Source: Monosiga brevicollis MX1
Lineage: Eukaryota
DNA: 57,508 nt
NCBI RefSeq assembly: GCF_000002865.3
Contig: NW_001865078.1
Location: forward strand, 170,103 to 227,610
Direction: 5' to 3'
Every line of letters starts with the position of its first letter. Position 1 is the first letter of the stretch. The notes below the pieces were generated by a model. The model saw nothing but the letters and a program-made list of their open reading frames with translations, made no database searches and was not told the DNA's origin. Of the stretch, positions 18,164 to 54,355 are shown piece after piece. The position numbers and the translations under genes were made by a program.

Positions 18164-21100
18164 CTAAAGAGGCTGAACAAAACGCTTTGCGTGCTTGGCG
18201 CTGGTATCAGTCCTGTCTTCCAACTTGTAGTGAACAAAGAGCTCAGGATACAGCTGTTCGGTTTCGAAAACAATAACTTCATGATGCTCACAAGCTGGCG
18301 TCGCAAGCACCGAGTCATATCTGCTTTGCCGGTGTGGGTGATAAACCAAACAACCGAAAACGTGAGAAAATAGCGCAGAGCAAGACAAGTTCAAGCATGC
18401 CGATTGCCGAACAACCAACCGCTCATTGCTGGGTGCGCTTTGCAGCAAGGGTGGAGCTAACCACGAGCTGCGATCAAGCTTGATTTCCCCTTGATCGAGG
18501 ACGTAGGTTTGCCCCAGAAGTGCGCGCGTGATAATCAACACATGCTCGTTGTCCTCCGAGCACGGCATTGCAAATCGATGACTCTGTCAAACACGAATAT
18601 GAGAGGTCGAGTTTCATACGCCATGGTGAAAGTGAAATGACAACGAACCTCTGCAGGGTTATCAGTCAAGTATACACCGAAACCAAATCGATGACCAGCG
18701 TTGCTTCCACTAAAGCGCTTGTCAAAACCCAACCGCGCAACCTTATCGCATAGCGCGCGATCGGCACTTATGCCGTGAAGCAGCAACCGCTCTTGGCATG
18801 GCGAGTCCCAATGCAAGACTGGTTGACCTGGTAGTGCATCCACATCATCTGTACGGAGTTGTGCAACGTGATTGTTGTTGTCGATGCGATGCAACATCTC
18901 CCGCCGCTTTGCACTGTAGCGCTCCCACAACACGGGGTTTTGAACGCGCTCTACTCGTTGTACGACAATGTTGGCTAGTCCCCGCCCATCAGGGCTCAAT
19001 TGACAGAGCAGCTCAGCCACCTATGCACACAATAAATTCAAATCAGACGACCTGTAAAAGAGCATCAAATCGTCGTAAAACGCACCTCTGGAATAAGCTC
19101 GGGCGCGTCGCGCAAAACGTCAATGGCTGGCCCGACTTGGGCAGCAGGTTGCTGTAGAATTTGCCCGGCGCTAAGTAGATTCGGCCTTTGCTTCTGATCT
19201 GTTGCAAGCAAAGCTCGCGTTTCCTTGTACAGCTGGCTCGTCGAGTCGCACATCTGCATCAGAAGCCAAGGTGAGTTTCAATCAAATAGGACGCGCGGTG
19301 GCCAGTTGCCAAACAAGAGATTTTGCAATTCGCTGACCTCGGTAGCCAACTGAGGGAAGGCGCAGTTGAGATCTTCCAGATGCATGCTCCATCTGCATTG
19401 ATCCACAACCTCATCGGTCTGCGACCGAGCCGGCGGCACCGTTCGCGGGAACATGTATGTGTTGTAGAGAACGCAGCCAAAGGCAAAGGCATCCTGTGCC
19501 GGACGCGCCCCCACACGACCACGGCCAAAAAGCACCTCTGGAGCGACGTAGCCCGCCGTGCCAGACAGGGCAGTAGCCGTGAATGGTAGCATGGTGGCTT
19601 CAGCGGCGGCCTTGGCAATGTCAAAATCACCCAGCCGCACGACGGGCTGGTCCTCCTCGCCGTCTAACATGACATTGCTCAGCTTGACATCTCGGTGTAC
19701 CAGGCCCTTGCTGTGCATAAACGCCAGGGCCATGCGCAGCTGCGTCATGAGTCCTGCAACCACGGTCGAGGTGGCCAGATGGCGCGCCCTACCGAGCCAC
19801 TGCTGCAGATCCCCCTGTGTACACCATGGCTGTACCAGGTATGCGCTTGGGTGGCCATCTCGCACATCCACAAGCGCGCCGAGGACTGGGACGATGTATG
19901 GGTGCTCAAGCTGACGCATGGCGCGGAGTTCGCGGAGAAATGTCCGGCATTGGTCCTGCTTGTGTTGCTCGGCAAGTGCATACTCTTTCACAGCCAAATC
20001 TTGCTCAGAAAGATTCGGCAGCGTTGCGCGGGCTTTGTACACCTTGTGATTCTGGTTGTATTGGAGAGACAGTTGGCCCAGGCTGGAGAGCGTCAAACCC
20101 TGGTCTACTTCGGTCATGGCCTCCAAGATGAGGCTGGCTGGAAGGTCGGGGCCAAGCACTGTGCGGAGCCGCGCTCCCAGCGCGCTCTGGTCAGGGTACA
20201 AAAAGACCAGAAGAGCTGGGAAGTGTTGGTGTAGCAGCTCTGCCAGTGCCGCCACCTGGTCTACCTGTGTTTGATCCGATAGTTGTCGCTGCAAAATGAC
20301 CAAACGCTCCTTCATAGTTTGTAATCGAGCCTCGAGGCCAGCTCGCATCTCTTCGGGAGCCAAGGGCAAGAATGCCGTGGTTGCCTGGATGTTGTTCTGC
20401 AGCTCGGCCACTTTCTCGTGGATGGATACGACTTGATCCGTGCGGCTCTGCGTGATGCCATCGGCATAGCTTTGGCACGAAGTTAGCACGGACAGCGTCG
20501 TGGTCTGCCAGTCGATCATGTCTTGCAACTGCTGCACCAGGGCTTGCGCCTCGTGAAGCGCAAACGCCAGATACCAGTCTTGATGTCCATAGTCATGCTC
20601 TGCTCTCCAGGTTATCAGCTGCTCCAGGCCGTTCTGCTCGGGCAAGCTCAGCTTTTCGTGGGCTTGGCACAACTCCTCCCAGGCCTCGGGCAATGCCTCG
20701 GCTGGAGGTGGTGCACTCAAATCCAAGCCTTGCGCACTCTGCTCGAGTGTATCGACGCGATGGTCCGTGTCAGTGGTTCCCGCTCTTGCCACAGCACGCA
20801 GGGCAGTAATCAGCGCCTTCGCCAGCTGCTGGAGGTTGCTGTTGGCGTTGGTGAACAGTTCTATGCGGTTGGTTTCCACGTCGCGTAGCATGGCGACTTT
20901 ATCCAGGGCTGCACCGAGGTTGGCGGGCGGCGTTTCGGGTGCCATTGTCAGCGTGGTGGGTGGAGCGGGGCACGCTGCCAGCACGGTCTGAAGCTCGAGA
21001 AGCACTGGCTGTAGCTCAAAACCAGCAGCGGCATTGTGCAGCGCTTGCAGTACTGATTCTAGGTTGTCAGTGTTGGGGTCCAATTGACCCAAGCGGTTGT

Positions 21101-23019
21101 TCAACGCTTCGGGCGCTGCCAGTGCCTGGTCGAGCGCGCCGAGGGCCTGGGTGGTGGTCGCCTGGAAGGCAGCCCAGTCCATGGCAGGAAACTCTGGTGG
21201 CGCTTTATCGATGGTCCTCTGGATGTCCGCAACTGCCGTTGCAAGATTGGGGTTTTGTTTGGCGGCACCGCTGATAAAGGCATCGAGGTGGGGGAGGGGA
21301 TGGCTGGTGGTGCGCTCCGGCAAGAGGGGCCTGAGCCAGGTATCCACCGCCACCACAACAGAGGCCGTGGTCTAAATCAGGGTTGTGTGGTGCCATCGGT
21401 CGTGATCAGGTTGAATGAGGCCGTGGGGATTGGGGTAGTAAATGCATCGGGGAAAACATGATAGGGGGAGCAGGCTCACCTCGAGGGTGGGGGTGGGGGG
21501 CAGAGGCGGCAGCCAGGCAGAAGGCGGTGCCGGCGTGGGCGGAGCGAGGGGCGCGGGTGATTGCGATAGGCGAGTCTCGTGGGCAGCAAACACGGGCTCC
21601 AGCTTGTCGCCATGTCCATTGTGACGTCCGCATTCGAGGGGCGTTCGACCACCCTGAGAACATGTGATTGGAGCGTGTGAGGTGGGCAGCGACGCGAGGG
21701 CTGAGTTGGGCGACGTGCATTTGCTTTCTAATAACAAAGGCGAGGTAACAATGTTTTAATGTGTGCTAAAGACGCCAGACGCGCGAGTGGTGTGAAAATG
21801 GTGCGGGCAGGGGGTCCGAAAGGAGACGCGTTTGGAGAAGGAAAAAAAAAAGAAAAAAGAAAAAAAGGCAACGGCGCGTGTGCCGGGGGCAAACGTGAAG
21901 GCACGGCCACCGAAAGCCGCTTGGGCGAGCGAGGGAGGCAGAGACATGATGGAAAGGGGGGTGGAGTGGTGCCCGGATGGATCAGAAAAAGGCAGAGCGA
22001 GGACGGCAGGCGGAAGACACCAGCAGGGAGCAGGGCGGGGCGCAGGGAGCACCGGCAAAGCGCGGACGCAAAGCAGGGGGAAGAAGAGGGATAGCGGGAA
22101 AGAAGAAAAGGAGCCAGGGGGGAGAACGGACGCGCACGGGTGGGCAGGGTGTAGAGGAGAGGAGGGACGGGGGCAAAGGCGACGGGGCAGCGGGAGCAGG
22201 AGCAGCAGCCAGAGGGGTAAAGGGGGGGAGAGGGAGATACTGTACTGACCTTGTTCTTGGCATTAGCATCAGCACCGTGCTTCAACAGCATCTCCACCAC
22301 CTTGACATGACCGTAAGCGCAGGCCAAGTGCAGTGGTGTCCAGCCACTCTGTGGGATGATGCATCAGCATGACGTACAGGTACAGCATCAGCATCATCAT
22401 CATCATCATCATCATCATGGGGTACAGGTGCACCATCATAAGGGGGTAAAGGGGGGAAGAGGGAGGTACTGTACTGACGTCGTTCTTGGCTTTAGTATCA
22501 GCACCGTGCTTTAACAGCATCTCCACCACCTCGACATGACCGTTTTCGCAGGCCCTGTACAGTGGTGTTTTGTCATCCTGTGGGATGATGCATCAGCATG
22601 ACGTACAGGTACAGCATCATCATCATCATGGGGTACAGGTGCACCATCATAAGGGGGTAAAGGGGGGAAGAGGGAGGTACTGTACTGACGTCGTTCTTGG
22701 CTTTAGCATCAGCACCGTGCTTTAACAGCATCTCCACCACGTTGTCATGACCCCAATAGCAGGCCCAGTGCAGTGGTGTATAGCCACCCTGTGGGATGAT
22801 GCAGTATATGTCCCATGTTATACCATAACGTCACCACATACAGTAAATAATTAAAAGTGTAACCAAGATCACACTACATAATACAAACAGCATACGTACC
22901 TCACTTCTTTTTTGGGCAGCATCTCGAATACGTTGTTGGTCCCAACTGCTCACCAGCTGCAGCGCCTCTTGTGGATTTGATGAACGACACGCATCGAACA
23001 GCTGCTTTCCATCACCCAT
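18164..23019 (-). CDS. Ankyrin repeat - helical linker - protein kinase - PARP catalytic domain fusion, copy 1 (3 canonical ankyrin exons), apparently intact
   Basis: ATG 23019. 99-bp ANK exons at 22788-22690, 22577-22479 and 22348-22250 (TPLHx[15 protein letters not shown]). Kinase in ORF 19278..21356: [37 protein letters not shown]; next exon gives DQKQRP. PARP exons: [45 protein letters not shown]. Confidence 0.88.
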
Positions 23020-23701
23020 GGTCACGGTATCTCTTTCGTTTTCCACCACCAATCTCATGAACCCCCTCCAAGTTTCAAAACCCAAAATTCGGACTGGGGT
23101 GCGACGTGCGCGCGCAGTTCCCAAAGCGGCAGCCAGTCGGCGGGCCTTTGCTCTTCCCTGCCTGATGCGCCAAACGACTCACCTCTGTCAAGAGTTGTGG
23201 GTGACAGTTGCGAGAACCGGTGTACTTGGTTGCCCAGGCGCAGGCGAGATCGATGGCCTCACCAAAATCGCAGTGATGCTCTCAACCAAAAAGTTCCGGC
23301 GTTGCCGCAAGGCCCCATCGGAGCACAAGCAATCAGTCACCACACAAAAAAGACGCCTCAAACAGCTCCGCTGATGCCAATGTCGATGTCGATACCGATG
23401 CCAAAGAGGGGAAGTAGGAAGAAGAGCAAATGCCAAACAAGAAGAAGAAGAAAATGCAAACGGTTGCAACCTTTTTTTATTTTGTTCAATCACGCAAGCA
23501 AATGGCGAAGTGCGGAAAGTGACGCGGACTGCAAGTCAAACGCACAAAAAAATAAAGCAAAAGTTTTCACCTTTTTTTCCTTTTTTTATTTTGCAATCAC
23601 GCAAGCAAATGCCGAAGTGTGTAAGTGTGTAAGAGTAAAAGTGGTTGCGAAACTGCTGCCATCTCTGTCACGAACCAGTGAGAAAGGAGAGATCGCGCTT
23701 T

Positions 23702-23949
23702 TTAGGATGTGATCTGTTTGTGGTCAATTCACAAAGCAAACAGAGGAAATTGAAACGGGAAAGGTACAAAGTAAAATGCCACTTCTGGTCTACAGAACCG
23801 TACTTATATCTCGGTGGCAGGAACAATCACAATGTTCTACAGGCTTCCTTGACGAGCGCCGTCAAGAATCATCAGACATCATCCTGGACTGGTATCTTCC
23901 AGAGTGTTCCAGCAGCTTCTGGACATACGTCTATGCTTGTAGTCCAATA
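23702..23949 (-). repeat. 3' LTR of the copia element
   Basis: Matches 27722-27992 apart from a 23-bp indel, a 1-bp indel and several substitutions. Preceded on the minus strand by a polypurine tract. Confidence 0.88.
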
Positions 23950-23958
23950 CTCCCCCTC
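23950..23958 (-). promoter_or_regulatory. Polypurine tract (PPT)
   Basis: Minus strand GAGGGGGAG directly after the RNase H stop and abutting the 3' LTR. Confidence 0.8.
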
Positions 23959-26900
23959 AAGCAGAGAAGCATAGCTTGCTTGTATGACGTTCATGAGCAT
24001 CTCTTGGAAGCGGCTTCGTCAGCAGATCAGCTATCATCTCATCAGTAGGACAATACACAATGTCCAATTGCTGTCGCTCGTACATCTCACGTAACGCGTA
24101 AAATTTGATCAACATGTGATGTTGTCCACGCTGTGCATTGCCATTGATCACGTTGGCGATGGCAGGTTGGTTGTCGCAATAGATGAGTGGTTTCAAGTCG
24201 GGTGAGAGATCCAACAACTCGTCCATCAGTTCATGCAGGATCAGGCTCTTGATAGCACCACTGTGTGCAGCCATATACTCAGCTTCTGCAGTTGATGCTG
24301 CTGTAGTCGTCTGTCGCTTGGAACGCCAGTATACTGGTCCGTTGCACAAGAAAATAACGCAACCTTCACGTGATTTCTTGTCATGCTCTTGAGCAAAGCT
24401 TGCATCAACGTACGTATCCAGCTGCAATCTCGTAGCAGGCGCTTGGCAGCTTGCCAGTGAGTCTCATCAAACCCCTGATTGTGAGCACTCAGGAAGCTAA
24501 CTGTGGCAGCAATGTCTGGTCGAGTGTGAGTAGCCAGGTAATTGAGCTTGCCTGTCAGCTTGCGAAAGGGAAATGACTCATCTCGGGAATCGATTCGCTC
24601 GAGCTTGAGTCCAGCAGGCCACGGTGTCGCTGTTGGCTTGGATGAAGCCATGTTGAACTCCTTGAGAATGCTTTCGATGTATGCAGTCTGCTTGATCACG
24701 ATGGAGTCCTTCGAAATGGTAAACTCCATGTTCAGAAAGTTCTTGATCTGTCCAAAGTCTTTAGTCTCAAACTTGTGCAAGAGCTTCTGCTTGAAGTCGG
24801 CAATGATGCGCTCAGAGCTGCCCACGAGCACGATGTCGTCAACATAGGCCAATGCCCATAGCGTGTCGATGCCTGCCGTGTAGACGTAAACACATTCATC
24901 CTGTCGGAGTCGGCGGCAGTGCAGCCCAGTTCGAAAATACTTGTCGAGTTCAAGGTACCATGCTCGCGAGGCTTGCTTCAGGCCATAGACTGCCTTGTTG
25001 AGCTTTGCATACTCACAACCCCCAAGTCCAGCTTCAAGACCACGTGGTACACGTACATAAATGTCTTCTTCGAGAGGGGCGTGAAGAAAAGCCGTCTTCA
25101 CATCCACTTGGTGCACGTGGTAATGCTGATGCGTTGCAAGTGCCATCAACAGGCAGATGGTGGTCATGTTCACCGTTGGCGAGTACGTCTCATCGTAATT
25201 GATGCCTTCACGTTGCTTGAAGCCCTTGGCGACAATGCGGGCCTTGTACCGGCCATCTTGCTTGATGTCGAATACCACACAAAGATCAAGCACATCCGCA
25301 TTGGGCTTGTGGTCCAGGCCAATCAGGACCTGGTGTTCTTGAAAAGATGCCATCTCATTGTCCAAGGCACGTTGCCAGGCGGAAGCATCTGGGCGAGTGA
25401 GAGCGTCTGCCACGCTCTGTGGTAGTTTTGCAGTCGAGCACCGGTTGGCAAAGTGGCCTAGTTCGGTTTCATTCAGGCGATCATACTTGCTCTTGTTTCG
25501 GCCATTGCCGGCGCTTCGGCGTGCTGCTAGGCGGGCTCCAATACCGTCGTCTGCTTCAGGACTGCTGGGCAAGGAATGATTTGTTGGTGAGGCAAATGGT
25601 GTTGCATCTGGACTTGATGTTGCTGTTGGTGATCCTGGCACCGGTTCTGGGTCATCAAACATCATTGGTACCATAGCCTCTGTGGTCTCCAGGTCAGCAC
25701 TTGCATGAGTGTAATCCGCACTGCGCCATGGCTGCAGCGAGTCGAGTGATGGCAACGTCACATTCTCCCCCTCATCACGAGAGTGGGGCGTCAGCTTCAA
25801 GTGCACGGTCTCAATCATCTTCTTGGTATCCAGCATGTACACCTTGTGCGAGAGCTTGGCAGGGGAATATCCCACGTAAATGCCCTTGCGCGCCTTGCGG
25901 CCAAACTTGAAGTCGCGGTGGTCCTTGTCACAGACGTACGCATCTGCACCAAAATCATGCAGGTCCAGGAGTGTATGTGGGTTGCGGCCATGCAAAAGCT
26001 GGTAGGCCGACATGTCGTTGAGAACCTCCTTGACCTTGATGTTGATCAAATATTCAGCGTGCTTGGCTGCATACGCCCAAAAGCCACGGGATAGCTTGCT
26101 GTCCTCCAGCAGTACACCAACCATGTCTCGAATTTCACGAAACGTGTTCTCAATCGCACCATTCATCTGCGGTGTGCGAGGTGGCGAGCAGCGCCACGTA
26201 ATACCGAGCTCCTTGAGCTTGGTTCGGAAGGCAGTGCTGCGATACGGTCCATCGTTGTCACTCTGAAAGATAGTCTGCCGGGCAATATCGCGCTCATTGA
26301 CCTTGACGGGAATGCTTGAATCGCGCAACATACGCTGAAAGCTCACCAGCAGCTCGTCTTTGCTCTTGACCGGGTCCAAGAACAGGTAACCAGTGGCAAT
26401 GTCCTTGTATGCAATGATGTACTTGTCGCCACGCAATGATGGGGGCGAAATGGGGCCAAACATGTCCGAGACCATCAAATCTCCCGGGCGACGAGGTGCC
26501 CTCGGTTCAGCTTTCTTGGGAATGGAGGCGAGCTTGGCCTTGTGAAGATGACATTCCTCGCAGCTGTCTAGCTTGTTCTCCAACTGCGTCAAGTCGACCT
26601 CCTTGTCCTTCAACATCTTGCGCGTTGCTGCTGCGGGTGGGTGTCCTAGGCGTCGGTGCATGTCAACAATGGTGTCATAGGACATATCTCGTACGACGTC
26701 AATGTCAAATGTGTAGAGTGGCAGTCCGTGCATCTTGTACTGAGCCTTCCACACCACGTTGTCCTGCTTCATGACAATGGTATCATAGCTTGGCATGGTC
26801 ACGTCCACGCCGGTCTTGCCCAGTTGACTCGTCGAAATGAGGTTGCGGGAAAAATCAGGCACGTAGCAGGCATCACGCAGCACGATCTGCTGCATCACTC

Positions 26901-27408
26901 CATCTTCATCCGTCACCAGCATACGAGCCGTACCAATGGCTTGAGATACCACCATGCGTCCTCCAGCATCAATCGGGACCTTGTGGATCTCCATGCTTTC
27001 GAAAAGTTTGGCATTGTTCAGAAAATGGCTGCTTGCTCCTGTGTCCACAATGGCCATGTCTTGACCTACTGGAATGCTTGCATGTGCCTCCTCCTGCACC
27101 GTGACAACGCTCACGTGCGCATAGGCACCAGGCGGCCCATTCTTCTGGTTCTTCTTGACGTCGTTTTTCTTCTTCTTGCAGTCAGCTTGCTTGTGGCCAT
27201 AGCCCTTGCAATAATGACAGTTGCCGTCAAAACGATGAAATTCATCTTGTTGTTCCTTGGAATGCTGCTTGCCGCGGCGCACACCACGGCGCCCCCGGCC
27301 ACGACCATAATTGCCTTGGTCAGGATACCTTTGGCCAGAACCACGTCCACGGTGAGATTGAGAGGCGTAGTAGGCTGCCTCAGCTTCTTGTTGTTCCTCA
27401 CACGGCAA
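23957..27408 (-). pseudogene. Copia gag-pol polyprotein, frameshifted near 24425 and lacking the capsid part of gag
   Basis: Two overlapping ORFs carry RT and RNase H separately. The YLKGT...GL segment usually found after AAKRLLR is absent. The ORF starts only about 60 aa before the zinc knuckle. Confidence 0.8.
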
Positions 27409-27708
27409 AATCCAACCCTTGGTTACGACGAATGAAATCTCCTTGTTCTCGGTAAGGTGTCACAGGCACCAAGTACACAGCTCCAGCCAGGCGACACAAG
27501 CACCAAGGCGAGCTCAAAAATTTTCCGCACAGCTCCAACCGGACGACACAGGCATCCACAGTGAGCTCAGGCTTTGTACAGCTCCAGCCGAGTGACACAG
27601 GCACTCCAGGCGAGCTCAGCTCTCACAGCTCCAGCTGGTGCAGCGCAACCACAGCGAGCTAGAAGCCGCAACACAGATCGAGACGAATTGTCAGCATGCG
27701 TCCATCGA

Positions 27709-27719
27709 GGCCCATAACC
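27709..27719 (-). promoter_or_regulatory. Primer binding site (copia-type GGTTATGGGCC)
   Basis: Minus strand ...CCTCA aa GGTTATGGGCC immediately inside the 5' LTR; this motif is typical of copia elements primed by an internal tRNA-Met fragment. Confidence 0.75.
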
Positions 27720-27721
27720 TT

Positions 27722-27992
27722 TGAGGATATGATCTGTTTGTGGTCAATTCACAAAGCAAACAGAGGAAATTGAAACGGGAAAGGTACAAAGTAAAAATGC
27801 CACTTCCGGTCTACAGGACCGTACTTATATCTCGGTGGCAGGAACAATCACAATGTTCTACAGGCTTCCTTGACGAGCGCCGTCAAGGATCATCAGACAT
27901 CATCCTGCAGTCGTTAATCACGATAGTCAGGACTGGTATCTTCCAGTATGTTCCAGCAGCTTCTGGACATACGTCTATGCTTGTAGGCCAAT
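27722..27992 (-). repeat. 5' LTR of the copia element
   Basis: Begins TG on the plus strand (ends CA on the minus strand) next to the PBS; homologous to 23702-23949. Confidence 0.88.
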
Positions 27993-30900
27993 GAGGCTGG
28001 CTGGAAGGTCCGGCCCAAGCACTGTGCGGAGGCGCGCTCCCAGCGTGCTCTGTTCAGGGTGCAGAAAGACCAGCAGCGCTGGAAAGTGTTGGTGCAGCAG
28101 CTCTGCCAGTGCCGCCACCTGGTCTACCTGTGTTTGATCCGATAGTTGTCGCTGCGAAGTGACCAGACGCTCCTTCATAGTTTGTAATCGAGCCTCGAGG
28201 CCAGCTCGCATCTCTTCGGGAGCCAAGGGCAAGAATGCCGTGGTTGCCTGGATGTTGTTCTGCAGCTCGGCCACTTTCTCGTGGATGGATACGACTTGAT
28301 CCGTGCGGCTCTGCGTGATGCCATCGGCATAGCTTTGGCACGAAGTTAGCACGGACAGCGTCGTGGTCTGCCAGTCGATCATGTCTTGCAACTGCTGCAC
28401 CAGGGCTTGCGCCTCGTGAAGCGCAAACGCCAGATACCAGTCTTGATGTCCATAGTCATGCTCTGCTCTCCAGGTTATCAGCTGCTCCAGGCCGTTCTGC
28501 TCGGGCAAGCTCAGCTTTTCGTGGGCTTGGCACAACTCCTCCCAGGCCTCGGGCAATGCCTCGGCTGGAGGTGGTGCACTCACATCCAAGCCTTCCACAC
28601 ACTGCTCTAGTGTGTCCACGCGATGGTCCGTGTCAGTGGTTCCCGCTCTTGCCACAGCACGCAGGGCAGTAATCAGCGCCTTCGCCAGCTGCTGGAGGTT
28701 GCTGTTGGCGTTGGTGAACAGTTCTATGCGGTTGGTTTCCACGTCGCGTAGCATGGCGACTTTATCCAGGGCTGCACCGAGGTTGGCGGGCGGCGTTTCG
28801 GGTGCCATTGTCAGCGTGGTGGGTGGAGCGGGGCACGCTGCCAGCACGGTCTGAAGCTCGAGAAGCACTGGCTGTAGCTCAAAACCAGCAGCGGCATTGT
28901 GCAGCGCTTGCAGTACTGATTCTAGGTTGTCAGTGTTGGGGTCCAATTGACCCAAGCGGTTGTTCAACGCTTCGGGCGCTGCCAGTGCCTGGTCGAGCGC
29001 GCCGAGGGCCTGGGTGGTGGTCGCCTGGAAGGCAGCCCAGTCCATGGCAGGAAACTCTGGTGGCGCTTTATCGATGGTCCTCTGGATGTCCGCAACTGCC
29101 GTTGCAAGATTGGGGTTTTGTTTGGCGGCACCTCTGATAAAGGCATCGAGGTGGGGGAGGGGATGGCTGGTGGTGCGCTCCGGCAGGAGGGGCCTGAGCC
29201 AAGTGTCCACCGCCACCACAATACAGGCCGTGGTCTAATTAAGGGTTGTGTGGTGCCATCGGTCGTGATCAGGTTGGATGAGGCCGTGGGGATTGGGGCA
29301 GTAAATGCATTGGGGAAAACAAGATGGGAGAGCAGGCTCACCTCGAGGGTGGGGGTGGTGGGCAGAGGCGGCAGCCAGGTAGAAGGCGGTGCAGGCGCGG
29401 GCGAAGCAAGGGGCGCGGATGATTGGGCCAGGCAAGCCTCATGGGCAGTAAACACGGGCTTCAGCTTGTCGTCATGCCCGTATAGACGTCCGTATTCGAG
29501 GGGCGTTTGACCACGCTGAGAACATGGCCACAGTCAAGCGATCGGAACGTGCGAGGTGGGCAACCACACGAAGTTGAGTTGAGCGATGTGACAAAGCTTC
29601 AGAGTGTGTCAGAGCCGCCAAACACGAGGGCATTATACAAATAGTGCGGGCAGGAACCGGGGTCCGAAAAGAGGCGCGTTTGGAAAAAAAAAAAAAAAAA
29701 AAAAAAAGGAGCGGCGCGTGTGCCGGGGCAAAACTGAAGGCACGGACACCAAAAGCCGCTGGAGCGCAAGCGAGGCAGAGGTGTGATGGCAAGGGGTAGA
29801 GTGGTGCCCGGATAGATCAGAAAAGGGGAGAGCGAGAACGGCAGGCGGAAGAAATCATGCAAAACGGGGTAAGAAGAGGGATAGCGGGAAAAAAGAAAAG
29901 GAGCCAGAGGTGGAACGGACGAGCACGGGTGGGCAGGGCGTGAAGGAGAGAAGAACGGGGGGCAAAGGCGACGAGCAGCGGCAGCAGGAGCAGTAGCCAG
30001 AGAGGAGGGGAAGAGGGAGTTCCTGTACTGACATTGTCCTTGGCTTTGGCATCAGCACCGTGCTTCAACAGCATGTCCACCACCTCAACATGACCGCCAA
30101 TGCAGGCAACGTGCAGTGGCGTTTCACCACCCTGTGGGATGATGCAAACAGCACGACGTACATGCACAGCAACTTTTTCATCATCATGTGGTACAGGTGT
30201 ATATCATGGGGGGGGAGGAAGGTACTGACGTTGTCCTTGGCTTTGGCATCAGCACCGTGCTTCAACAGCATCCCCATCACCTTGACATGACCCTTATGGC
30301 AGGCAACGTGCAGTGGTGTACGGCCATCCTGTGTGATGCATCAGCATGACGTACAGCATCATCATCATCATCATCATGTGGTACAGGTGTATCATCATAA
30401 AGGGAGGGTAAGGGGGTGAAGAGGGAGGTACTGAACTGACGTTGTTCTTGGTTGTAGCATCACCACCGTGCTCCAACAGCATCTCCACCACCTTGACATG
30501 ATCCTGATCGCAGGCATAGTGCAGTGGTGTATAGCCATCCTGTGGAATGATGCATCAGCGTTATATACAGCATTATCATCTTCATCATCATGTGATCCAG
30601 GTGTACCATCATGGAGGTACTGCACTGACCTTGTCCTTGGCTTCAGTAGCAGCACCGTGCTTCAACAGCATGTCCACCACCTTGACGTTACCGTTACTGC
30701 AGGCATCGTGCAGTGGTGTACGGCCATTCTAGGTGATGCATCAGCATGACGTACAGGTACAGCATCATCGTCATCATGTGGTACAGGTGTATATCAACAA
30801 AAGGAGGGTAAAGGGGGAAAAGAGAGGTACTGAACTGACGTTGTTCTTGGTTGTAGCACCACCACCGTGCTCCAACAGCATCTCCACCACCTTGACATGA

Positions 30901-31967
30901 TCCTGATCGCAGGCATAGTGCAGTGGTGTATAGCCATCCTGTGGAATGATGCATCAGCGTTATATACAGCATTATCATCTTCATCATCATGTGATCCAGG
31001 TGTACCATCATGGAGGTACTGCACTGACCTTGTCCTTGGCTTCAGTAGCAGCACCGTGCTTCAACAGCATGTCCACCACCTTGACGTTACCGTTACTGCA
31101 GGCATCGTGCAGTGGTGTACGGCCATTCTAGGTGATGCATCAGCATGACGTACAGGTACAGCATCATCATCATCATGTGGTACAGGTGTATATCAACAAA
31201 GGGAGGGTAAGGGGGTGAAGAGGGAGGTACTGAACTGACGTTGTTTTTGGCTTTGGCATCAGCACCGTGCTCCAACAGCATCTCCACCACCTTGACATGA
31301 TCCTGATGGCAGGCATAGTGCAGTGGTGTATAGCCATCCTGTGGAATGATGCATCAGCGTTATATACAGCATTATCATCTTCATCATCATGTGATCCAGG
31401 TGTACCATCATGGAGGTACTGCACTGACCTTGTCCTTGGCTTCAGTAGCAGCACCGTGCTTCAACAGCATGTCCACCACCTTGACGTTACCGTTACTGCA
31501 GGCATCGTGCAGTGGTGTACGGCCATTCTGGGTGATGCATCAGCATGACGTACAGGTACAGCATCAGCATCATCATCGTTATCATGTGGTACAGGTGCAC
31601 CATCATGTAGGGGGTAAAGGTGCGAGGAGGAAGGAACTGTACTGACCCTGGCCTTGGCTTTAGCATCAGCACCGTGCTTCAACAGAATCTTCACCACATT
31701 GAGATGACCGTGAATGCAGGCATAGAGCAGTGGTGTATAGCCAATCTATGGGATGATGCCGTTTATGTTCGATGTTAGACCTCATTCAGTGACATATTCA
31801 AAGTGTAACCAATATCACACAGCATCATATCAAACAGCACATACACTAGATTTGTAATTGGCAGCAGCTCGAATGCATTGGTCGTCCCAACTGGTCAACA
31901 GCTGCAGCACCTCTCGGGGATCTGATGAACAACACGCCCTGTACAGCCGCTGTCCATCATCACTCAT
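27975..31967 (-). pseudogene. Ankyrin-kinase-PARP paralogue copy 2, truncated just before the kinase (9 canonical ankyrin exons + linker, stop inside the LTR)
   Basis: ATG 31967 (MSDDGQRLYRAC). Nine 99-bp ANK exons between 31745 and 30033. ORF 27975..29219 is nearly identical to the copy 1 linker up to ...DLPASLI, then reads GLQA* in the LTR. Confidence 0.85.
30330..31560. repeat. Three near-identical ~400-bp tandem units, each holding two ankyrin exons plus introns
   Basis: Near-identical ORF translations recur at 30468, 30867 and 31267 (offsets 399 and 400). Confidence 0.9.
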
Positions 31968-34230
31968 GGTCACGGTACCTCTTTAACACCAGATTCTGTT
32001 TTCTTGCTTCTCTATCCAGCATCAATCGCATGAGCCCCCTCCAAGTCTGACAACCCAAAATTCGGACTGGAATTCGACGTGCGCGCGCAGTTTTCAAAGC
32101 GGCAGCCGGTCAGCGGGTCTTTCCTCTTCCCTGCCTGATGCAGCAAACGACTCACCTTTGGCCAACAGTTCTCGGTGACAGTTGCGAGGACCGGTGTACT
32201 TGCTTGCCCAAGCGCACGTTGTCGACTGCGAGGCGAGATCAGTGGCCTCACCAAAGAGAAAATAGTGCGTTACCACAAGTGCTGATCGGAGGGTCCCGAG
32301 CACAAGCAATCAGTCACCACACAAAGCAAGACACGTCAAGCAGCTCGCTGATGCCGACGTCAATGTCGACACCGATGCCAAAGAGGGGAAGAAGGAAGAA
32401 GAGGAAAGAAGAAGTAAATGCGGGGAGGGGGGTCATCGATAAACAATGATGATCGAATTCATCGAAGAACACTTGTTCAGAACAAATTGTATAAGCTAAA
32501 ATTCCTAAAAAATTAAATCTTACGATTTGCACAAATGTCCACTTCTGACATCGTTGGAAAGAGGAAAGCCTTTCTGGTGTATTTGAGACGGTGGACGAAG
32601 CTGCCCTGTGGGCCGAGCTAGCCTCACACCAGCGCGTCCGTAAGGATTTTGCCAGGGGTTCCGATGGAGAGCTTTTGACTGAGTTTCTCAGCAATGGCAC
32701 GGCCCAGCCTATTTGAGGTCACTATAACCCGGCGACCGTTGCGCCAATTGACTTGGGATTTTAACAGAGGCTGCATGAGACGAGATGGTCCAAACACCCC
32801 AATAGGTCCATTTGGCCCAAAAGCGACAAAATCTCAGCTTGACCAAAATGACAGTCGTGCAAATCGAAACTCGAGCTTACACAATTGTGAGGTGCAGTCA
32901 GAATGGAGTTTCCAGCGTTGATGAGGTGACGCGTCATGACTGCCACAAAGAGTCCAACATTATCCACAGAGACAACTAACTACCCCTCACAGCTCGCATG
33001 CAGCAAACAACCGTGACTTGTCTCAGAGAGCAAGCACAACTTTGTGTTTTTTTTTCTGCTCAGGACCCCGGTCTTCAAAAGTCGTTTGCCGGTGTTTTTT
33101 GCTGATTCGGGCGTAAATCCGCTGTTTCTCGGGTCTGACGAAAACAAGTGTTGCGGAACTGCTGCCATAACAGCTGGAAAGAATTCCAAGCCCTTTACAA
33201 GCAGATTTTGAAGAGCCGCAAAAACTGGGGCTTGCATGTACACGCGTGCTGCCCGCTGTGCCAGCCATGGCATTCAAAGTTCGTTGGCTAAAACGGTACA
33301 ACCCCTCTGTCCATATCACTCTCATCCCTCCCGCCTGAGCGACCCTTCGAGCTCCTCGTGCTTCTTCCCCTTCGGTCCAGCAATTATAATTGTTGCTGAG
33401 GACGTGATCCATTCGCCTTGCTCTTTCAAAGATGATTCAGCCGGCCTGGGCAGCGAATTAGACTGTCTCGAAAGCTAGTCTTCACGAGCGTTGTGTGAAC
33501 CCGTCCATCCCTAGCATGGTCTGACGCTCCTGTTGCACGCCACATCACACCATGACCAACCAAAAGTCGACCACCATGACAATCACTTGCACGTTGACTT
33601 GCACTTCACGGCCATCATTCTTGGGTGCCATCACGGCCGGTGTGCAAGAGAGGTCAAACACATGTATCTGTGACACGAACCAGTGAGAAAGGAGAGATCG
33701 CGCCTGATGGCACCGTTGTTTCAGTTTGAGAGACGTCCGTTGGAATGGAACAAGAACAGTGGAGGTGTCTTGAGGTCAATTGAACCAGCTGTGGCCGGCA
33801 AGCATTCACAGTGAGCAGACCAGGTGCATCCTTAGAATAGCTGTCGAAGCGCTTATTCCCGAGGATAAGAAAAGTGCAACTCGTGCTCAACCGCAGATGT
33901 CACAACAGGGAGACACAACGGTAAACACAAGTTCATCAGACAGAGCTGCTTGCCAATGCAAAGTACCCAAAGCACGCGAGGTTGGCTCATGTGCCTCTCA
34001 TGAGAAAGGTCTGGTCCAGTGGCGCTTTGTGCAGGTGTGTATGTTAGTCAGGCAGTGAAAGTCGTGCCGGCTATAGTGGGGTTCCCCTGTGGAAAGACTT
34101 GGAGTGGATGACACCGATCATGTGCAAAAGTGGTGGGGGTGCTCAAGTGTGGAAGAACAACGGATTTGACGCGAACAACTAGCAAGTCGTCCAGCCCATA
34201 CTCGTCCAGCTCAAACTCGTCCAGCTCTTC

Positions 34231-37200
34231 CTAATTGGCCGTGTAGTGTACAACCAGCTCGGGATAGATTTGGGCGTTCTCAAACACAATCACCTCATGG
34301 AATTGCCCAGGCGGCGTTGCAATAACCGAGTCATACCTGAAGGAAATTTCAATGGCAAACGCAACAAGTCAGATCAGGTGGCGGGCAAAGTCAACATGCA
34401 ACAAATACACGATTTTGTTCCACGCACCGCTCGTTGTTGGGCGCATCGGGCAGGAGCGGTGGTGCCACCGCCCCAGCACGAGGTGATGGATGGGCATGGG
34501 CATGGCCAAGGAGTGCTCGCGTGATGATGAGCATCCGTTTGTCGTTGGGTCCGGCACGAGCGTACTGATGACTCTGGTATCATGTAGGCACACAATGCGT
34601 CAGAACACCATCACTCATATAGACAAATCGCAATTGAAAGTCAGCGCGGCCATACCTTGCCGGGATGGTCGGCCAGGTAAACACCGAGACCAAATCGGTG
34701 GCCGGCACTGCTGCCAGCAAAGCGATAGTCAAGGCCCAGTCGCACAATCTTGTCGCGCAGCATTGTGTCAGGGCCGATGCCGTGGAGCAACAGGCGCTCT
34801 TGACAGGATGTATCACGGAGCAGAGCTGGAGAGCCGGAGGGTGCATCTAATGTGGACGCTTGGAGTTGATCATAGTGCTCCTGACTTTTGATACGATGCA
34901 ACATCTCGCGTCGCTTGGCGCTGTAGCGCTCCCACAGCACGGGGTTGTGCACGCGCTCTACCCGTTGCACTGCAATATTTGCTGGTCCCCGCCCATCGGT
35001 GTTCAGCTGCTTCAGTAGCTCACCCACCTAGCCACCCAGTAGGTTCAAATCAGACGATTCGTGGAAGCGCCAAAAAGCCAACAAGCAACGCACCTCTGGA
35101 ATAAGCTCGGGCGCATCGCGCAAGACATCAATGGCTGGCCCGGCTTGGGCAAAGGCAGACTGCTGCACGATCTGCCCGGCACTGAAGAGGCTTGGTCGTT
35201 GCTTTGAATCTGTTGCAAGAAAGGCTCGTGTTTCCTTGTACAGATTGCTCACTGCGTCGCACATCTGCACAGAAACACAGCTGTGAACAACAACAACAAC
35301 AACAACAACAACGACGACGACGACGACGACGACGATGACAACCAGAGCGTCTTAAAATTCAAGAAAACAAAATATTTGACTGACCTCGGCCGCCAGATGA
35401 GGAAAGCTGAAGGCATCATCTCCCGCTTAAAAATCCCATCTGCAATGATCCACAACCGCATCGGTTCGTGACTGAGCCGGCGATACCGTTTGTGGGTACA
35501 TGTAGGTGTTGTACAGCACACAGCCGAAGGAAAAGGCATCTTGTGCCGGACGCGCCCCCACACGACCCCGGCCAAAAAGCACCTCCGGTGCGACGTAGCC
35601 CGCCGTGCCCGACGACGCGGTGGCCGTACATGGTAGCATGGTGGCTTCAGCGGCGGCCTTGGTAATGTCAAAGTCGCCCAACCGCACGACGGGCTGGTCC
35701 TCTGCACCGTCCAGCATGACGTTGCTCAGCTTGACATCTCGGTGCACCAGGCCCTTGCTATGCATAAACGCCAGGGCCGTGCGCAGTTGAGTCATCAGAC
35801 TTGCAATTACGGTCGAGGTGGCCAGGTGCCGTGCCGTGCTGAGCCACTGCTGCAAATCACCCTGTGCACACCATGGCTGTACCAGGTATGCGCTCGGGTG
35901 GCCACTGTGTACGTCCACGAGCGCACCGAGGACCGGGATAATGTGTGGGTGCTCAAGCTGCCGCATGGCGCGGAGTTCACGCAGGAATGTACGGCACTGG
36001 TCTTGTTTGTGTTGCCGAGCAAATGCATACTCCTTGACAGCCAAATCTTGCTCCCCAAAATCTGGTATCACGGCGTGGGTCTTGTACACCTTGTGATTTT
36101 GATTATAATGAAGATCAAGCTGACCCAGGTTGGAGAGTGACAGTGTGCGGTCCACTTCAGTCATGGCCTCCAAGATCAGACTGGCTGGAAGGTCGGGGCC
36201 AAGCACTGTGCGGAGCCGCGCTCCCAGCGTGCTCTGTTCAGGGTGCAAAAAGACCAGCAGCGCTGGGAAGTGTTGTTGCAGAAGCCGGGCGAGCTCTACG
36301 ACGTGGTCCACACGTGGCTGATCTGATAATTGCTGTCGCAAGGTGTCGCGTTGCGTTTCTAGCTTTTTGAGTTCTTGCTCGAGAGCAGACCGAAGAACTT
36401 TGGGCACGAGCTGTAGAGCTGCGCTGCTGTTTTGAATCTCAGTCTCCACCTTGGTTAGTTCCTCGTGGGCAGCAGCCGATTCATCATCAACGTCTTGAGT
36501 CAAGCTGTTCACATGACTCATGCACGAGGTCAACACGGAGAGCGTCGTGGCCTGCCAGTCAATCATGTCTTGTAACTGCTGCAGCAGAGCTTGCGACTTG
36601 TGGTGCACAAACGCCAAGTACCAATCCTGATGCTCGTAGTCTGTAGGTGGTTGCCACTGAGCAATTTTTTGAAGGCCATTGTGCTCGAGCAGGCTCAGCT
36701 TCTCGTGAGCTTGGCACAGCTCCTCCCAGGCCTCGGGCAAAGCCTCGGCTGGAGGCGGTGCACTTGCATCCACGCATTGCGCGCATTGCCGTAGCGTTTC
36801 CACGCGATGAATCGTCTCGCTGGTTCCAGCTTTTGCCACGGCGCCCAGGGCATCGATCAAGGCAAGCACTAGGTGCTTGAGGTTGCTGTTGGCACCGGTG
36901 AGCAGCTCTTGACGCTTGGATTCTACGCCGCTTAGAGGGATCACTTTGCCCAGGGCCGCTGCCAGGTCGGTGGGTGGTGTCTCAGGCGCGATTAATGGCG
37001 CGGTGGGTGGAGCGGGGCATGCTGCCAGCACGGCCTGAAGCTCAAGAAGAACTGGCTGCAGCTCGAACCCAGCAATGATATCGTGCAGCTCTTGCAGCAC
37101 TGAGTCCTGGCTGTCACTGTTGGGATCCAATTGCTTCAAGCGGCTGCTCAACGCTTCGGGCGCTTCCAGTGCCTGTTCGAGTGCGTTGAGAGCCTGTGTG

Positions 37201-38554
37201 ATGGTGGCTTGAAAAGCAGACCAGTCCATGTCAGGGAAGTCTGGTGGAGTTTGATTGATGATCTTCTGGAAGGTAGTAGCTGCCGCAGGATTGAAATCTT
37301 GCTTGATGGCACCGCTGATAAATGCATCGAGGTGCGAGAAGGGATGGGTGGTGGTATGCTCGGGCAGAAGCGGCTTGAGCCAAGCTTCCACCGTCAGCAC
37401 AATGGAGGCCGTGGTCTGATGTTTTGAAGTTTTGTTGTGGGTATGCACTCGGATTAGAGAAGCGTTTTCAATGGGGACGCATGTATAAGCATAATGTTGG
37501 AACAGGCTAACCTCGAGGGTTGGTACGAGGCTAGGCAGGGTCAGCAGCCATGGGAGGCTGGCTTCGTAGGCAGCAATCATGGGCTCTAGCTCATCGCCAT
37601 GCCCGTTTTTACGCCCCAGATCGAGGGGCGTTTGGCCATCCTGAAAACATGGCCACAATCAAGCGATCAAAGCGTGTGAGCTGGACAGCAATGTACGAAT
37701 AAACTCGAGCGTTATGCTTTTTTTCTTTACAAAAAAAATATCCGATATAATAATATATTCAGGAAGCACTCAGAATGTGCAAAACCGCTCAAGGTCGAGC
37801 GGTTCACAACTGAAACAAACAGATGCAGGATGGGTATACACAAGCAATGCCAGGGAAAAAGGCAAGGTCTAGCAAACACGGGCAAGAACAAGGCGAGTCA
37901 CAGGCAGAACCGAAAGGGGCCGAGGCAAGGCGGTATGAAAGAAAGACCTCGAAGATGTACAGCAAGTAGGGTGTAGAGAAACACAACAAGCAGAGCAGGA
38001 AAAGGATGAGAGAGAAGAGATAAGTACCAACTTTGTCTCTGACTATAGTGTCAACGCCGTGTGTCAGCAGCATTTTTACCACGTCCACATGACCTTGGCC
38101 ACAGGCCCAGTGCAGCGGTGTCCTGCCACTCTGTGGGTCGATGGACCATTAACGAGTGTTAGTTACAATGTATCAAAAGACGCATGATGACGACATTCAA
38201 GTTGAATGTGGGCAGAAGAAGGAGACACTGACGTTGTTCCTGGCTTCAACCTCAACGCCGTGCTCCAACAGCTTCTCCGCCACTTCCAACTGACCGTGGA
38301 AACAGGCCCAGTGAAATGGTGTCCAGCCGCGCTATGGGTTGATGCGTCACCATTACGTTCAAGTACACAGTATAATGAGTATCAGGTCGTGCCATGACGT
38401 CTAGGCTTATGATCTGAAACGGGTACAATGTGACGTGACGTACCTTATCTTTGAAAGTGGCATCCCAACTGTTCAATTCATTCATCAGCTGCAGTGGTTG
38501 TGGATTCAATGACCGACATGCCCAGTACAGCGAATCGCTGTCTGCATCATTCAT
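34231..38554 (-). CDS. Ankyrin-kinase-PARP fusion, copy 3 (2 canonical ankyrin exons), apparently intact
   Basis: ATG 38554. ANK exons 38331-38233 and 38130-38032. Kinase in ORF 35427..37658 has the same motifs as copy 1. PARP exons ERLLLHG, FGLGVYLADHPGK|SHQY, YDSV..FHEVIVF..IYPELVVHY. TAG at 34231-34233. Confidence 0.88.
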
Positions 38555-39016
38555 GTTCACGGTCTCTGTCGAGCACACTGCCAAATGAATGAGCTCCCTC
38601 CGAACGAATCTCATACCTTCTGTTATTGTCTGACAACCAGGTGTCGGACTCACCTGAGAACTCGACGGGTTGCGGGGTGGGTGTCCAAGTTGAGATCGAG
38701 GCGTAGTTGATGTTGACGTTGATCTTCGTGGCACTCGCACCACGCAGAACGAAAATAAGATGGCCGGTGTTGTCGGATCAGGATTGAGGCGTAGTCAATG
38801 TTACTGTACTGTGACGTGATCTCTCCACGCAGAAAGAAGGAAACTTAAAACGACGCGGTCACTGAACTTGGTCCACCAACTTTTGGCATCGTCACAAGCC
38901 CTTGAACAGGACCACATACACAAGAAATCGGGCGCGTTCAGCCAAGAGCCAAGATACGATAACTGAAGGAGTCAGCTCCCAATACCGATGCCGATCCCGA
39001 TCCCGATTCCGATCCT

Positions 39017-39137: not shown

Positions 39138-39977
39138 TTAATGTCGATGAAGAAGAAAAATCAAAACAGGCAAAGAGGAAAAATGCCCATTCACACCGGT
39201 TTCTGGTTTCTGATGCTTCAAACACACTTACACGGACATGTACATGTAAGTGATACCAAGTTCTTTCCCACGTCTCAGTCCCTCTCCCCCAAAAAACCCA
39301 AAAGGACAAATCATTACCAACAACCTGAAGAGGTCAATGTCCTGACGATGAACAATCGTTACCACAAAGACCAAGCATACTTGTGCCAAACACACACACA
39401 CAAGCCACGAGCAACACTCGAGACAGAGCGAGGCATTTCATATTCATCCGAATCGTCGATGTTGACGGCACCCGTGGATGCCAATGTTCGCACCGATTGA
39501 TGACCGTATGTTGACGGTGCGTGCTACTAGATCCCATGGATGCCAAAGATGGTGATTCGCGCCGATTGATGAGTGAAAGGGGGAGTCAGAGTGAGAGAGA
39601 AAGCGTCAAGCAAAGCGGGCAAAATGGGAAGATGGAATGAGTTGCAAAGTGAGAAGAGATCAGGAATTTGCAGGTTCGGGTGGTTGCCAAACTAGCAACA
39701 TACGATATCAAAATGTTCTCTGCTCGCAAGACGGCATCACATGGATCGCACGGATTTGCATAGTTTTGCACAGTTCGTCCCAGCCAGCGGCGTTTGTCGA
39801 TCTCGGCGGGAGTGGTCAGTTGAACTACATGTAGTGCTTTATCGAACCTTGAAATTTATAGGTTTTTATGCAATTTACAATTTTACATGTTGATAAAACA
39901 TGACATTGTTTACATCATCAGATCTGTGGTGTGTGATCAAAATTAAATTTTCATTTTATGTCAGACTTTTTATATGA

Positions 39978-39980
<3 letters not shown>

Positions 39981-40025
<45 letters not shown>
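39981..40025. repeat. (TG)n microsatellite
   Basis: Seen directly. Confidence 0.95.
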
Positions 40026-40026
<1 letters not shown>

Positions 40027-40086
40027 AATTTTAAACTTTGTTGTTTTACTAAGTCTTCATTTTATCGTGCCTCCTCCCGCGTCGAG

Positions 40087-54207: not shown

Positions 54208-54355
54208 TGCGTACGGCAGCTGCGGCGATGAACTGAAGCCGCCGATGGGAGATATTGATGCGTCATGTCTTTGAACGCGCAATAAAGTCGGGCTTCGTGT
54301 GTGCAGTGGATCGCCTTTGCCACATGCGGGCATTTGCACCTGGCGACACCACATC

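Follow-up and report, generated by a model that had tools for sequence, protein, structure and literature searches.

Cassette-like ankyrin arrays and probable germline diversification in a kinase-PARP gene family of Monosiga brevicollis

A stretch of 57,508 nt from the choanoflagellate Monosiga brevicollis MX1 (assembly GCF_000002865.3, contig NW_001865078.1, positions 170,103 to 227,610), hereafter the window, with positions counted from its first letter, was found to carry three tandem paralogous genes on the minus strand between 18.1 and 38.8 kb. The ankyrin domain of these genes is organised as a cassette system, in which a first cap exon, a varying number of phase-0 exons of equal length (99 nt), each accompanied by a short homologous intron, and a second cap exon follow one another. 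Analysis of the repeats, presented below, indicates that the ankyrin module has probably been diversified in the germline, by gain and loss of whole exons together with positive selection at the residues predicted to contact ligand. The window as a whole is eukaryotic in character, with a G+C content of approximately 54%.

Results

Exon organisation of the ankyrin arrays

Both strands of the window were scanned for 99-nt segments preceded by AG and followed by GT that are open in frame and conform to a loose ankyrin motif. The scan returned 23 rows, comprising 14 ankyrin exons and nine chance matches devoid of ankyrin sequence. All 14 exons lie on the minus strand, are exactly 99 nt in length, AG/GT-flanked, open and in phase 0, and encode one ankyrin repeat each, with the TPLH start of the first helix, the GH turn and the LL..GA core by which ankyrin repeats are recognised being present in every unit. 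Three of the exons belong to copy 1, nine to copy 2 and two to copy 3. An initial annotation of the region, which was made from the letters alone, had described phase-0 exons of 99 bp in these same numbers, and every one of the 14 was recovered by the scan at the same place; the span that it assigned to the arrays (22250..38331) corresponds to the outermost edges of the 99-nt exons.

The exons are framed by closely similar splice sites. The donor is GTCAGT after 13 of the 14, the exception being the exon at 38032, which is followed by GTTGGT, and the acceptor is CAG in 10 cases and TAG in four. Introns between repeat exons are 90-130 nt long and mutually homologous near both splice sites. Six of the 11 contain no stop in the exon frame, with the consequence that gene predictors read through them. 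The short introns carry, in addition, runs of (CAT)n/(ATG)n, at 22386-22418 and 22591-22659 and within the introns of 30033-31745.

Upstream of the arrays stand exons encoding a cap-like pair of helices without TPLH (N-cap), one per array, the coding parts of which, counted from the ATG, amount to 120, 123 and 111 nt (40, 41 and 37 codons) in copies 1, 2 and 3, respectively, and end in phase 0. Downstream of each array is a second type of exon (C-cap), which starts in phase 0 with a degenerate half-repeat (G.TPL..G...GH.D.LEP). The phase of the 99-nt exons is thus set by the flanking cap exons, and since the N-cap exons end and the C-cap exons start in phase 0, any number of 99-nt exons keeps the frame open. 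The further point made in the initial annotation, that skipping of an exon would stay in frame, holds by the same arithmetic.

The coding part of the copy 1 N-cap exon occupies 22900..23019 (ATG at 23019-23017, donor GTACGT) and corresponds to residues 1-40 of P0001, the public model of this gene. It is followed by the three ankyrin exons identified in the scan, at 22690..22788, 22479..22577 and 22250..22348, and by the C-cap exon at 21480..21653, which comprises 58 codons, is in phase 0 at both ends and continues from the half-repeat into a proline-rich linker. In copy 2 the coding part of the N-cap exon lies at 31845..31967 (ATG at 31967, donor GTATGT), and the array at 30033..31745, with eight introns of 90-119 nt between the nine exons returned by the scan (31647-31745, 31429-31527, 31240-31338, 31029-31127, 30840-30938, 30630-30728, 30441-30539, 30230-30328 and 30033-30131); the C-cap exon, located by reading of the sequence, is at 29342..29515. 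Copy 3 has its N-cap exon at 38444..38577 (ATG at 38554, donor GTACGT), upstream of which a 5' untranslated exon ends at 38654. Its two ankyrin exons, at 38233..38331 (RGWTPFHWACFHGQ...) and 38032..38130 (SGRTPLHWACGQGH...), are indicated by the scan and are consistent with sequencing run X6, and its C-cap exon was placed by reading at 37512..37640.

Transcript and read evidence

The kinds of the sequencing runs employed were judged from the behaviour of their depth as opposed to their records. Run X6 appears RNA-like, in that its depth is 0 in the intergenic bins at 32609-33511, where the DNA-like run X1 has a depth of 11-39. One joint in X6 removes exactly 30540-30629 (CT..AC on the plus strand, cut +1), matching the intron predicted to separate two repeat exons of copy 2, and a second removes 35028-35093 in copy 3. 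Additionally, an X6 contig of 1143 nt aligned to 37149-37415 and then to 38654-38900, with 461 nt in between; the four predicted copy 3 exons sum to this same length (134 + 99 + 99 + 129), the correspondence being one of length arithmetic that is exact at both ends.

Several X6 joints resemble exon skipping (31338>31649, 31338>31653, 31337>31653, 30328>31241, 30530>31649 and 30092>31652). They carry between one and 11 unmatched letters at the joint, and a further joint, 30501>38303, connects copy 2 with copy 3. Since paralogues or repeated units fit equally well at 90% likeness, these joints were not counted as skipping.

The summed contig depth of run X1 across 29900-38900 is approximately 11 in unique parts, 700-1160 in the top ankyrin-exon bins (one being at approximately 32) and 200-640 in the kinase and PARP parts. 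This pattern fits what would be expected with tens of paralogues at 90% identity or above, although depth of this kind is not a copy number. Run X14 (organism B) covers parts of the region only, and array length is beyond the resolution of the short-read contigs from other runs.

Positions of variation within the repeat

Nine columns are invariant in all 14 exons (T4, P5, A9, C10, V17, L21, L22, H24 and G25), and the highest entropies are associated with positions 11, 12, 8, 1 and 3. When the window exons were considered together with the repeats of 24 public models, found with a profile built from the window exons, 39 distinct repeats were obtained, in which the six positions of highest entropy were 11, 8, 12, 3, 1 and 33 (2.6-3.5 bits), all others being at 2.0 bits or less. 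The constant framework and the variable positions around the first helix that had been described from the letters alone are borne out by this concentration of entropy. All 10 of the ten-residue strings given in that description prove to be residues 7-16 of 99-nt exons, and an eleventh variant at the same residues, HYACDQDHVK, which occurs in two exons, was absent from its list. Mean identity between repeats is 0.70 in copy 1, 0.66 in copy 2 and 0.45 in copy 3, and in copy 1 reaches 0.84 without the six variable positions.

The best matches to the ankyrin array among solved structures were a DARPin (6mol, E 1.2e-152) and chains of ankyrin-1, with tankyrase-1 matched also (E 2.2e-60). The register established via 6mol places exon positions 33, 1, 3, 11, 12 and 31 at DARPin positions 2, 3, 5, 13, 14 and 33, and exon position 8 at DARPin position 10. 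DARPin positions 2, 3, 5, 13, 14 and 33 are reportedly those randomised by Binz et al. in 2003, and five of the six top-entropy exon positions coincide with what we take to be this set. Exon position 31 (DARPin 33) is not variable, whereas exon position 8 (DARPin 10) is.

Rates of change at the predicted contact residues

The class of codons to be tested was fixed beforehand as the six DARPin positions, with position 8 added in some tests to give seven binding codons. Changes were reconstructed by parsimony on a tree built with FastTree from each exon and 60 nt of its flanks. The six a priori codons account for 50.0 of 112.3 replacement changes, a share reached by 61 of 200000 random sets of six codons. 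The seven binding codons have accumulated 3.35 replacements per non-synonymous site on the tree, compared with 1.22 synonymous changes per synonymous site when the entire exon is counted and, for 55 alignable columns of intron flank, 1.75 changes per site (conditional binomial p of 6e-6 and 9e-5, respectively).

A similar picture emerges from five phylogenetically independent pairs of exons, where the proportion of non-synonymous differences (pN) at the six a priori codons is 34.9/76.7, or 0.455, as against a synonymous proportion (pS) of 19.8/109.3, or 0.181 (Fisher 8e-5), and 97/345, or 0.281, in the intron flanks (p 0.004). The value of pN at these positions is, then, 2.5 times pS and 1.6 times the intron rate. 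The most closely related pair, exons 2 and 3 of copy 1, differ at 3 of 76 intron sites and at 2.5 of 21.2 synonymous sites, but by 10.5 replacements over 18.2 sites in the seven binding codons (Fisher 1.2e-6), which is 14 times the intron rate, and there are no differences in 39 nt of their upstream introns. In this pair a divergent codon may be changed at as many as three bases, while the TPL, AC and GH codons interleaved with such codons show no difference even at silent sites, and this codon-by-codon interleaving cannot be accounted for by gene-conversion tracts alone. Averaged over all 91 pairs, dN/dS (the ratio of the non-synonymous to the synonymous rate) is 1.12 for the whole exon and 0.82 for the framework, with dN at the binding positions being 0.70-0.77. 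The initial annotation had named an even spread of variation across the repeat, with dN/dS below 1, as part of the outcome that would count against its proposal; change was found instead to be concentrated, with the binding positions evolving faster than the neutral markers. On this small sample, the sequence comparisons argue for diversifying selection on ligand contact at the concave-face residues (positions 1, 3, 8, 11, 12 and 33).

Probable gain and loss of repeat exons

Tandem Repeats Finder detected a period of 400 nt, with 4.4 copies, at 30003-31759 in copy 2, and periods of 211-229 nt in copy 1. The 400-nt period of copy 2 comprises three two-exon units (31527-31128, 31127-30729 and 30728-30329) that are 95.7-97.0% identical, introns included, indicating that the introns were duplicated together with the exons; over their first 219 nt the three units show no difference. 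The tree pairs the first exon of copy 1 with the first of copy 2, and the third of copy 1 with the ninth of copy 2, and puts the inner exon of copy 1 together with the inner, expanded exons of copy 2. Paralogue P0077, on another scaffold, contains an exactly duplicated segment spanning mid-exon to mid-exon, which amounts to a two-exon duplication. Given the near-identity of the 400-nt units, the pairing of end exons by position, the expansion of inner exons and the range of repeat counts among paralogues (1 to 9), we infer that the arrays have been reshuffled by unequal crossover, in line with what had been put forward in the initial annotation.

Despite arrays of three and nine exons, copies 1 and 2 share 86% identity along 2697 aligned nt that extend from the arrays into the following helical domain. 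The homology stops near 27991, which is exactly where a copia-type long terminal repeat (LTR) retrotransposon stands (approximate limits 23600..27990, minus strand). The element has an open pol frame of 1072 amino acids (24241-27459), with Pfam matches to RVT_2 (3.1e-58), rve and gag_pre-integrs, and direct repeats at 23773-23893 and 27794-27914 that are 95% identical. The sequence past the element is the upstream region of copy 1 and not the remainder of copy 2, indicating that the kinase/PARP half of copy 2 has been deleted as opposed to merely interrupted. What remains downstream of the copy 2 array is a helical-domain exon at 27978..29234, the frame of which closes at a stop, with kinase and PARP missing.

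Domains downstream of the arrays

The predicted protein plan of the family is an N-cap, a varying number of ankyrin repeats, a C-cap and an orphan helical domain of approximately 415 residues, followed by protein kinase and PARP catalytic domains. In copy 1, a large exon (19338..21371) encodes the helical domain followed by the kinase, and the last four exons (18164..19253; approximately 19253-19086, 19020-18649, 18583-18420 and 18320-18167 plus stop) encode a linker and the PARP domain. The corresponding exons of copy 3 lie at 34234..37415, the first starting at 37415, with an intron at 35028-35093 and the last coding exon at 34335-34234.

Pfam analysis of P0001 returned Ank_2 (PF12796) at 9.1e-30 (103.5 bits, cut-off 27.3), Ank (PF00023) at 2.3e-22, Pkinase (PF00069) at 4.1e-36, above its cut-off, and PARP (PF00644) at 8.4e-12 (45.5 bits against a cut-off of 26.7). 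For copy 3 the values were 3.4e-34 for Pkinase and 1.8e-5 for PARP, the latter (24.8 bits) being obtained on a single piece of open reading frame (ORF) and falling below the cut-off. An HRD..N-type catalytic motif, a variant in place of DFG, and the AVKEY and APE motifs can be read in the kinase of P0001. The PARP part is nearest, among solved chains, to PARP15/PARP14 (E 8e-6, as against 9e-4 for tankyrase), and its histidine (ERLLLHG) and tyrosine (GFGVYL) align with catalytic residues of PARP15. The same Pfam scan of P0001 gave no match to SAM, the kinase and helical domain standing between the ankyrin array and PARP, and none to NB-ARC or ROC-COR, kinase and PARP being the only output domains that it returned.

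The helical domain had no match in Pfam. Its relatives among 1.84 billion representative sequences number eight, of which seven are from M. brevicollis and one is an unnamed fragment of 66 amino acids. The predicted model is all-helical, with long helices (pLDDT 73, pTM 0.50), and a Foldseek comparison with the PDB gave no match at E of 0.001 or less; the best rows, to long-helix proteins, had TM scores of 0.23 or below and were taken as meaningless.

Extent of the family and reliability of public models

The copy 1 large exon (697 amino acids), when employed as a protein query, gave 75 matches, the top 19 of which (E of 4e-143 or less) are all M. brevicollis MX1 models, whereas the twentieth (E 1.1e-11) is to the kinase part only. 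Five longer models are also found among the family matches, all from M. brevicollis. On the strength of these searches, the family to which the genes belong comprises at least 24 gene models and is restricted to M. brevicollis. A search with an ankyrin part, residues 1-107 of P0016, gave 236 matches among 334 candidates, mostly to generic ankyrin proteins of many phyla, which show 40-58% identity, and M. brevicollis contributes seven among the 120 matches listed.

Copy 1 is represented among the public models by P0001 (MONBRDRAFT_39174, 99% identical), and copy 3, in part, by P0014. P0001 skips the middle ankyrin exon (22479-22577), while P0014, when compared with 35427-38794, begins past the ankyrin part and loses part of the kinase. 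Recognisable repeats number from 1 to 7 per public model. In 16 of 40 cases the repeat is followed by V[SN].., which is the translation of a GTCAGT-type donor, indicating that paralogues on other scaffolds have an intron at the same position and that the public models are unreliable. Repeat counts taken from the public annotation of this family will accordingly be wrong, given that one model omits a repeat exon, another is without the ankyrin part and 16 of 40 repeats enter introns.

Other features of the window

An ORF at 54275-54811, on the plus strand and towards the 3' end of the window, resembles the N-terminal and apparently extracellular part of the M. brevicollis model MONBRDRAFT_7571 (P0184), with 42% identity (E 2e-29). 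That model couples this part to ankyrin repeats of the type encoded by the 99-nt exons (..TPLHTACYYGRVKVVEMLMEHGVDAKAKDN), and would represent either a second architecture that employs these repeat exons or the fusion of neighbouring genes in one model. A long open frame at 39937-41400, also on the plus strand, contains approximately seven FG-GAP/VCBS-like repeats (..DLDGDGDLDVLSAS..D.KIAWYRN.G.G.FS..), as judged by eye. An assembly gap of 252 N at 3059-3310 is flanked by long (CA)n/(TG)n runs, and similar dinucleotide runs occur elsewhere in the window.

Discussion

The data are consistent with a process in which an exon and its intron are duplicated as one, the 3' exon halves and intron ends being near-identical between units, and in which misaligned recombination would then add or remove whole repeats with the frame kept, to give arrays of 1 to 9 repeats. 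Positive selection at the contact residues would diversify the binding face of the arrays so produced, and the ankyrin domain could feasibly serve as a target-recognition module that delivers diverse ligands to an output made up of kinase and ADP-ribosyltransferase.

A number of points weigh against germline diversification of a functional recognition module. The selection analysis is confined to 14 exons (12 distinct proteins) in one window, and employs parsimony and Nei-Gojobori counts as opposed to codon-model likelihood, with recombination and transition bias uncorrected. The framework is only weakly constrained, its pN of 48.3/309 (0.156) not being significantly different from the pS of 0.181. 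The intron flanks near the splice sites may be under constraint, or gene conversion may have homogenised them, in which case the neutral rate would be understated; at 0.281 these flanks are already above pS. Copy 2 has lost its kinase and PARP domains, with the copia-type element in their place, and for this reason part of the family may be decaying, which would raise dN generally. With regard to the output domains, the glycine-rich loop of the kinase, as read in P0001, is degenerate, so kinase activity is not assured, and the search with the C-terminal PARP piece, in which the third catalytic residue is expected, found no solved relative on which to place that residue. Finally, the internal identity of the repeats is 61% here (70% in copy 1), as against at least 85% in the fungal repeats discussed below, according to the available text of the paper concerned.

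As to what the arrays might bind, non-self recognition, of bacterial prey, pathogens or viruses, is the leading candidate, although this is put forward with reserve and endogenous targets are possible. Taken further, it is conceivable that the genes encode germline-diversified choanoflagellate receptors, with a cassette-built ankyrin surface for foreign proteins, a dual kinase/ADP-ribosyltransferase output and diversity within a clone arising through skipping or recombination, but this must be regarded as speculative. About as plausible is an endogenous role, in which the diversification is real but each paralogue is a tankyrase-like scaffold enzyme dedicated to another cellular substrate, with no function in non-self recognition. 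Ankyrin repeats together with PARP make up the tankyrase plan, the solved matches to the array include tankyrase-1, and the family is absent from the main text of a study of the response of M. brevicollis to pathogens (PMC8592570). Moreover, ankyrin-PARP combinations of this species, which are mentioned in passing in the available portion of PMC4245714, are described there as independent inventions. On the other hand, the PARP domain is nearer to PARP14/15 than to tankyrase, and restriction to one species, clustering in tandem, surroundings rich in retrotransposons, fast birth and death, and replacement rates in excess of silent rates would, by extension from the Ectocarpus and fungal precedents, be more typical of families driven by conflict.

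An ordinary ankyrin family, in which the variable positions are unconstrained surface, repeat number drifts by neutral tandem duplication and diversity is not selected for, seems improbable. Such an explanation would accommodate the framework dN/dS of near 0.8-0.9, the truncation of copy 2 by the copia element, the partial state of several public models and the closeness of the repeats to the universal consensus, as reflected in the flood of generic proteins retrieved in the ankyrin-only search. The DARPin positions, moreover, were reportedly picked because they are variable in natural repeats, which likewise counts in its favour. However, neutral positions should not exceed the silent rate, whereas pN at the a priori positions is well above both pS and the intron rate, and the variable codons differ at two to three bases beside neighbours that are identical at silent sites. 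Mosaic gene conversion, whereby old divergent 5' half-exons were kept while the 3' halves and introns were homogenised to give a false signal of fast evolution, would explain why differences cluster in codons 1-16, why exons 1 and 2 of copy 1 are identical in the 3' exon half and the downstream intron, and why the first 219 nt of the 400-nt units are identical, but it is very unlikely, since the silent-identical TPL, AC and GH codons lie within the 5' half, interleaved with divergent ones, where selection against conversion would be needed, and since the upstream introns of copy 1 exons 2 and 3 are also identical.

Individual parts of the proposed scheme have precedents. The ROCO-LRR and NB-ARC-TPR genes of Ectocarpus (LRR, leucine-rich repeat; TPR, tetratricopeptide repeat), which are candidate pathogen receptors, encode one repeat per exon and show exon shuffling and diversifying selection (Zambounis et al. 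2012, PMC3341825), and splicing of the ROCO genes is the subject of a follow-up paper (PMC11378527). As far as the accessible parts of these papers go, the M. brevicollis genes resemble those of Ectocarpus in having one symmetric-phase exon per repeat, a repeat domain varied by exon duplication, diversifying selection, lineage specificity and high birth and death. They differ in that the repeat is ankyrin (99 nt) as opposed to LRR or TPR, the associated domains are kinase and PARP in place of ROC-COR GTPase or NB-ARC, and the organism is a choanoflagellate and not a brown alga; exchange between loci, moreover, amounts here at most to the positional pairing of copies 1 and 2. The repeats of fungal NLR-like proteins (ANK/TPR/WD) are highly conserved, and in those of the ankyrin type repeat number is polymorphic among isolates, which is attributed to recombination between repeats, and positive selection acts at approximately five concave-face positions in the inner helix and beta-hairpin (Dyrka et al. 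2014, PMC4986451). Insofar as the excerpted text of that paper allows comparison, the two systems share a constant ankyrin framework, selection on the concave face and changing repeat number. The fungal proteins, however, contain NACHT or NB-ARC domains, and the fungal unit is defined by conservation of protein sequence, that text describing no exon-per-repeat structure, whereas one is found here.

The arrangement of N-cap, consensus repeats and C-cap, the cap exons of which can be read in all three copies, is that of DARPins, although the latter are man-made and selected in vitro, and DARPin position 10 varies here while position 33 does not. Tankyrases, like the present proteins, couple an ankyrin recognition domain to a PARP catalytic domain. 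They consist of ankyrin clusters, SAM and PARP, whereas the M. brevicollis proteins lack SAM, have the kinase and the 415-residue helical domain inserted, carry a PARP domain of the PARP14/15 type, and form an expanded, species-restricted family. In the vertebrate genes ANK1, ANK2 and ANK3, exons of 99 bp or 198 bp encode many of the 24 repeats. An exon of 99 nt per repeat is therefore shared with these genes, but their arrays are fixed at 24 repeats and conserved, while in M. brevicollis recent paralogues differ in both repeat number and contact residues, and introns have been duplicated along with the exons.

A literature search on 99-bp ankyrin exons found no paper, and searches combining Monosiga with ankyrin, PARP, kinase, kinome, exon and diversifying selection found no description of the exon cassette, the kinase-PARP pairing or the selection pattern of this family. 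The sole mention of Monosiga in PMC2964712 concerns a PARP2-like clade, PMC1553488 deals only generally with ankyrin duplication units and exon shuffling, and PMC4494053 contains nothing relevant to the family. Neither ankyrin nor PARP appears in the main text of PMC8592570, and the gene numbers that were tried are absent from two of its supplements, its expression tables lying outside the search.

The principle is known, in that each ingredient has a precedent, the novelty residing in the type of repeat, the lineage and the output domains. The family would constitute a concrete candidate for a set of recognition receptors whose plan is neither that of NLRs nor that of Toll-like receptors, with ankyrin repeats, kinase and PARP as its components. 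The pattern of one exon per repeat, shuffled and diversified, that is associated with the LRR and TPR genes of brown algae would thereby be extended to a third independent lineage and a third type of repeat.

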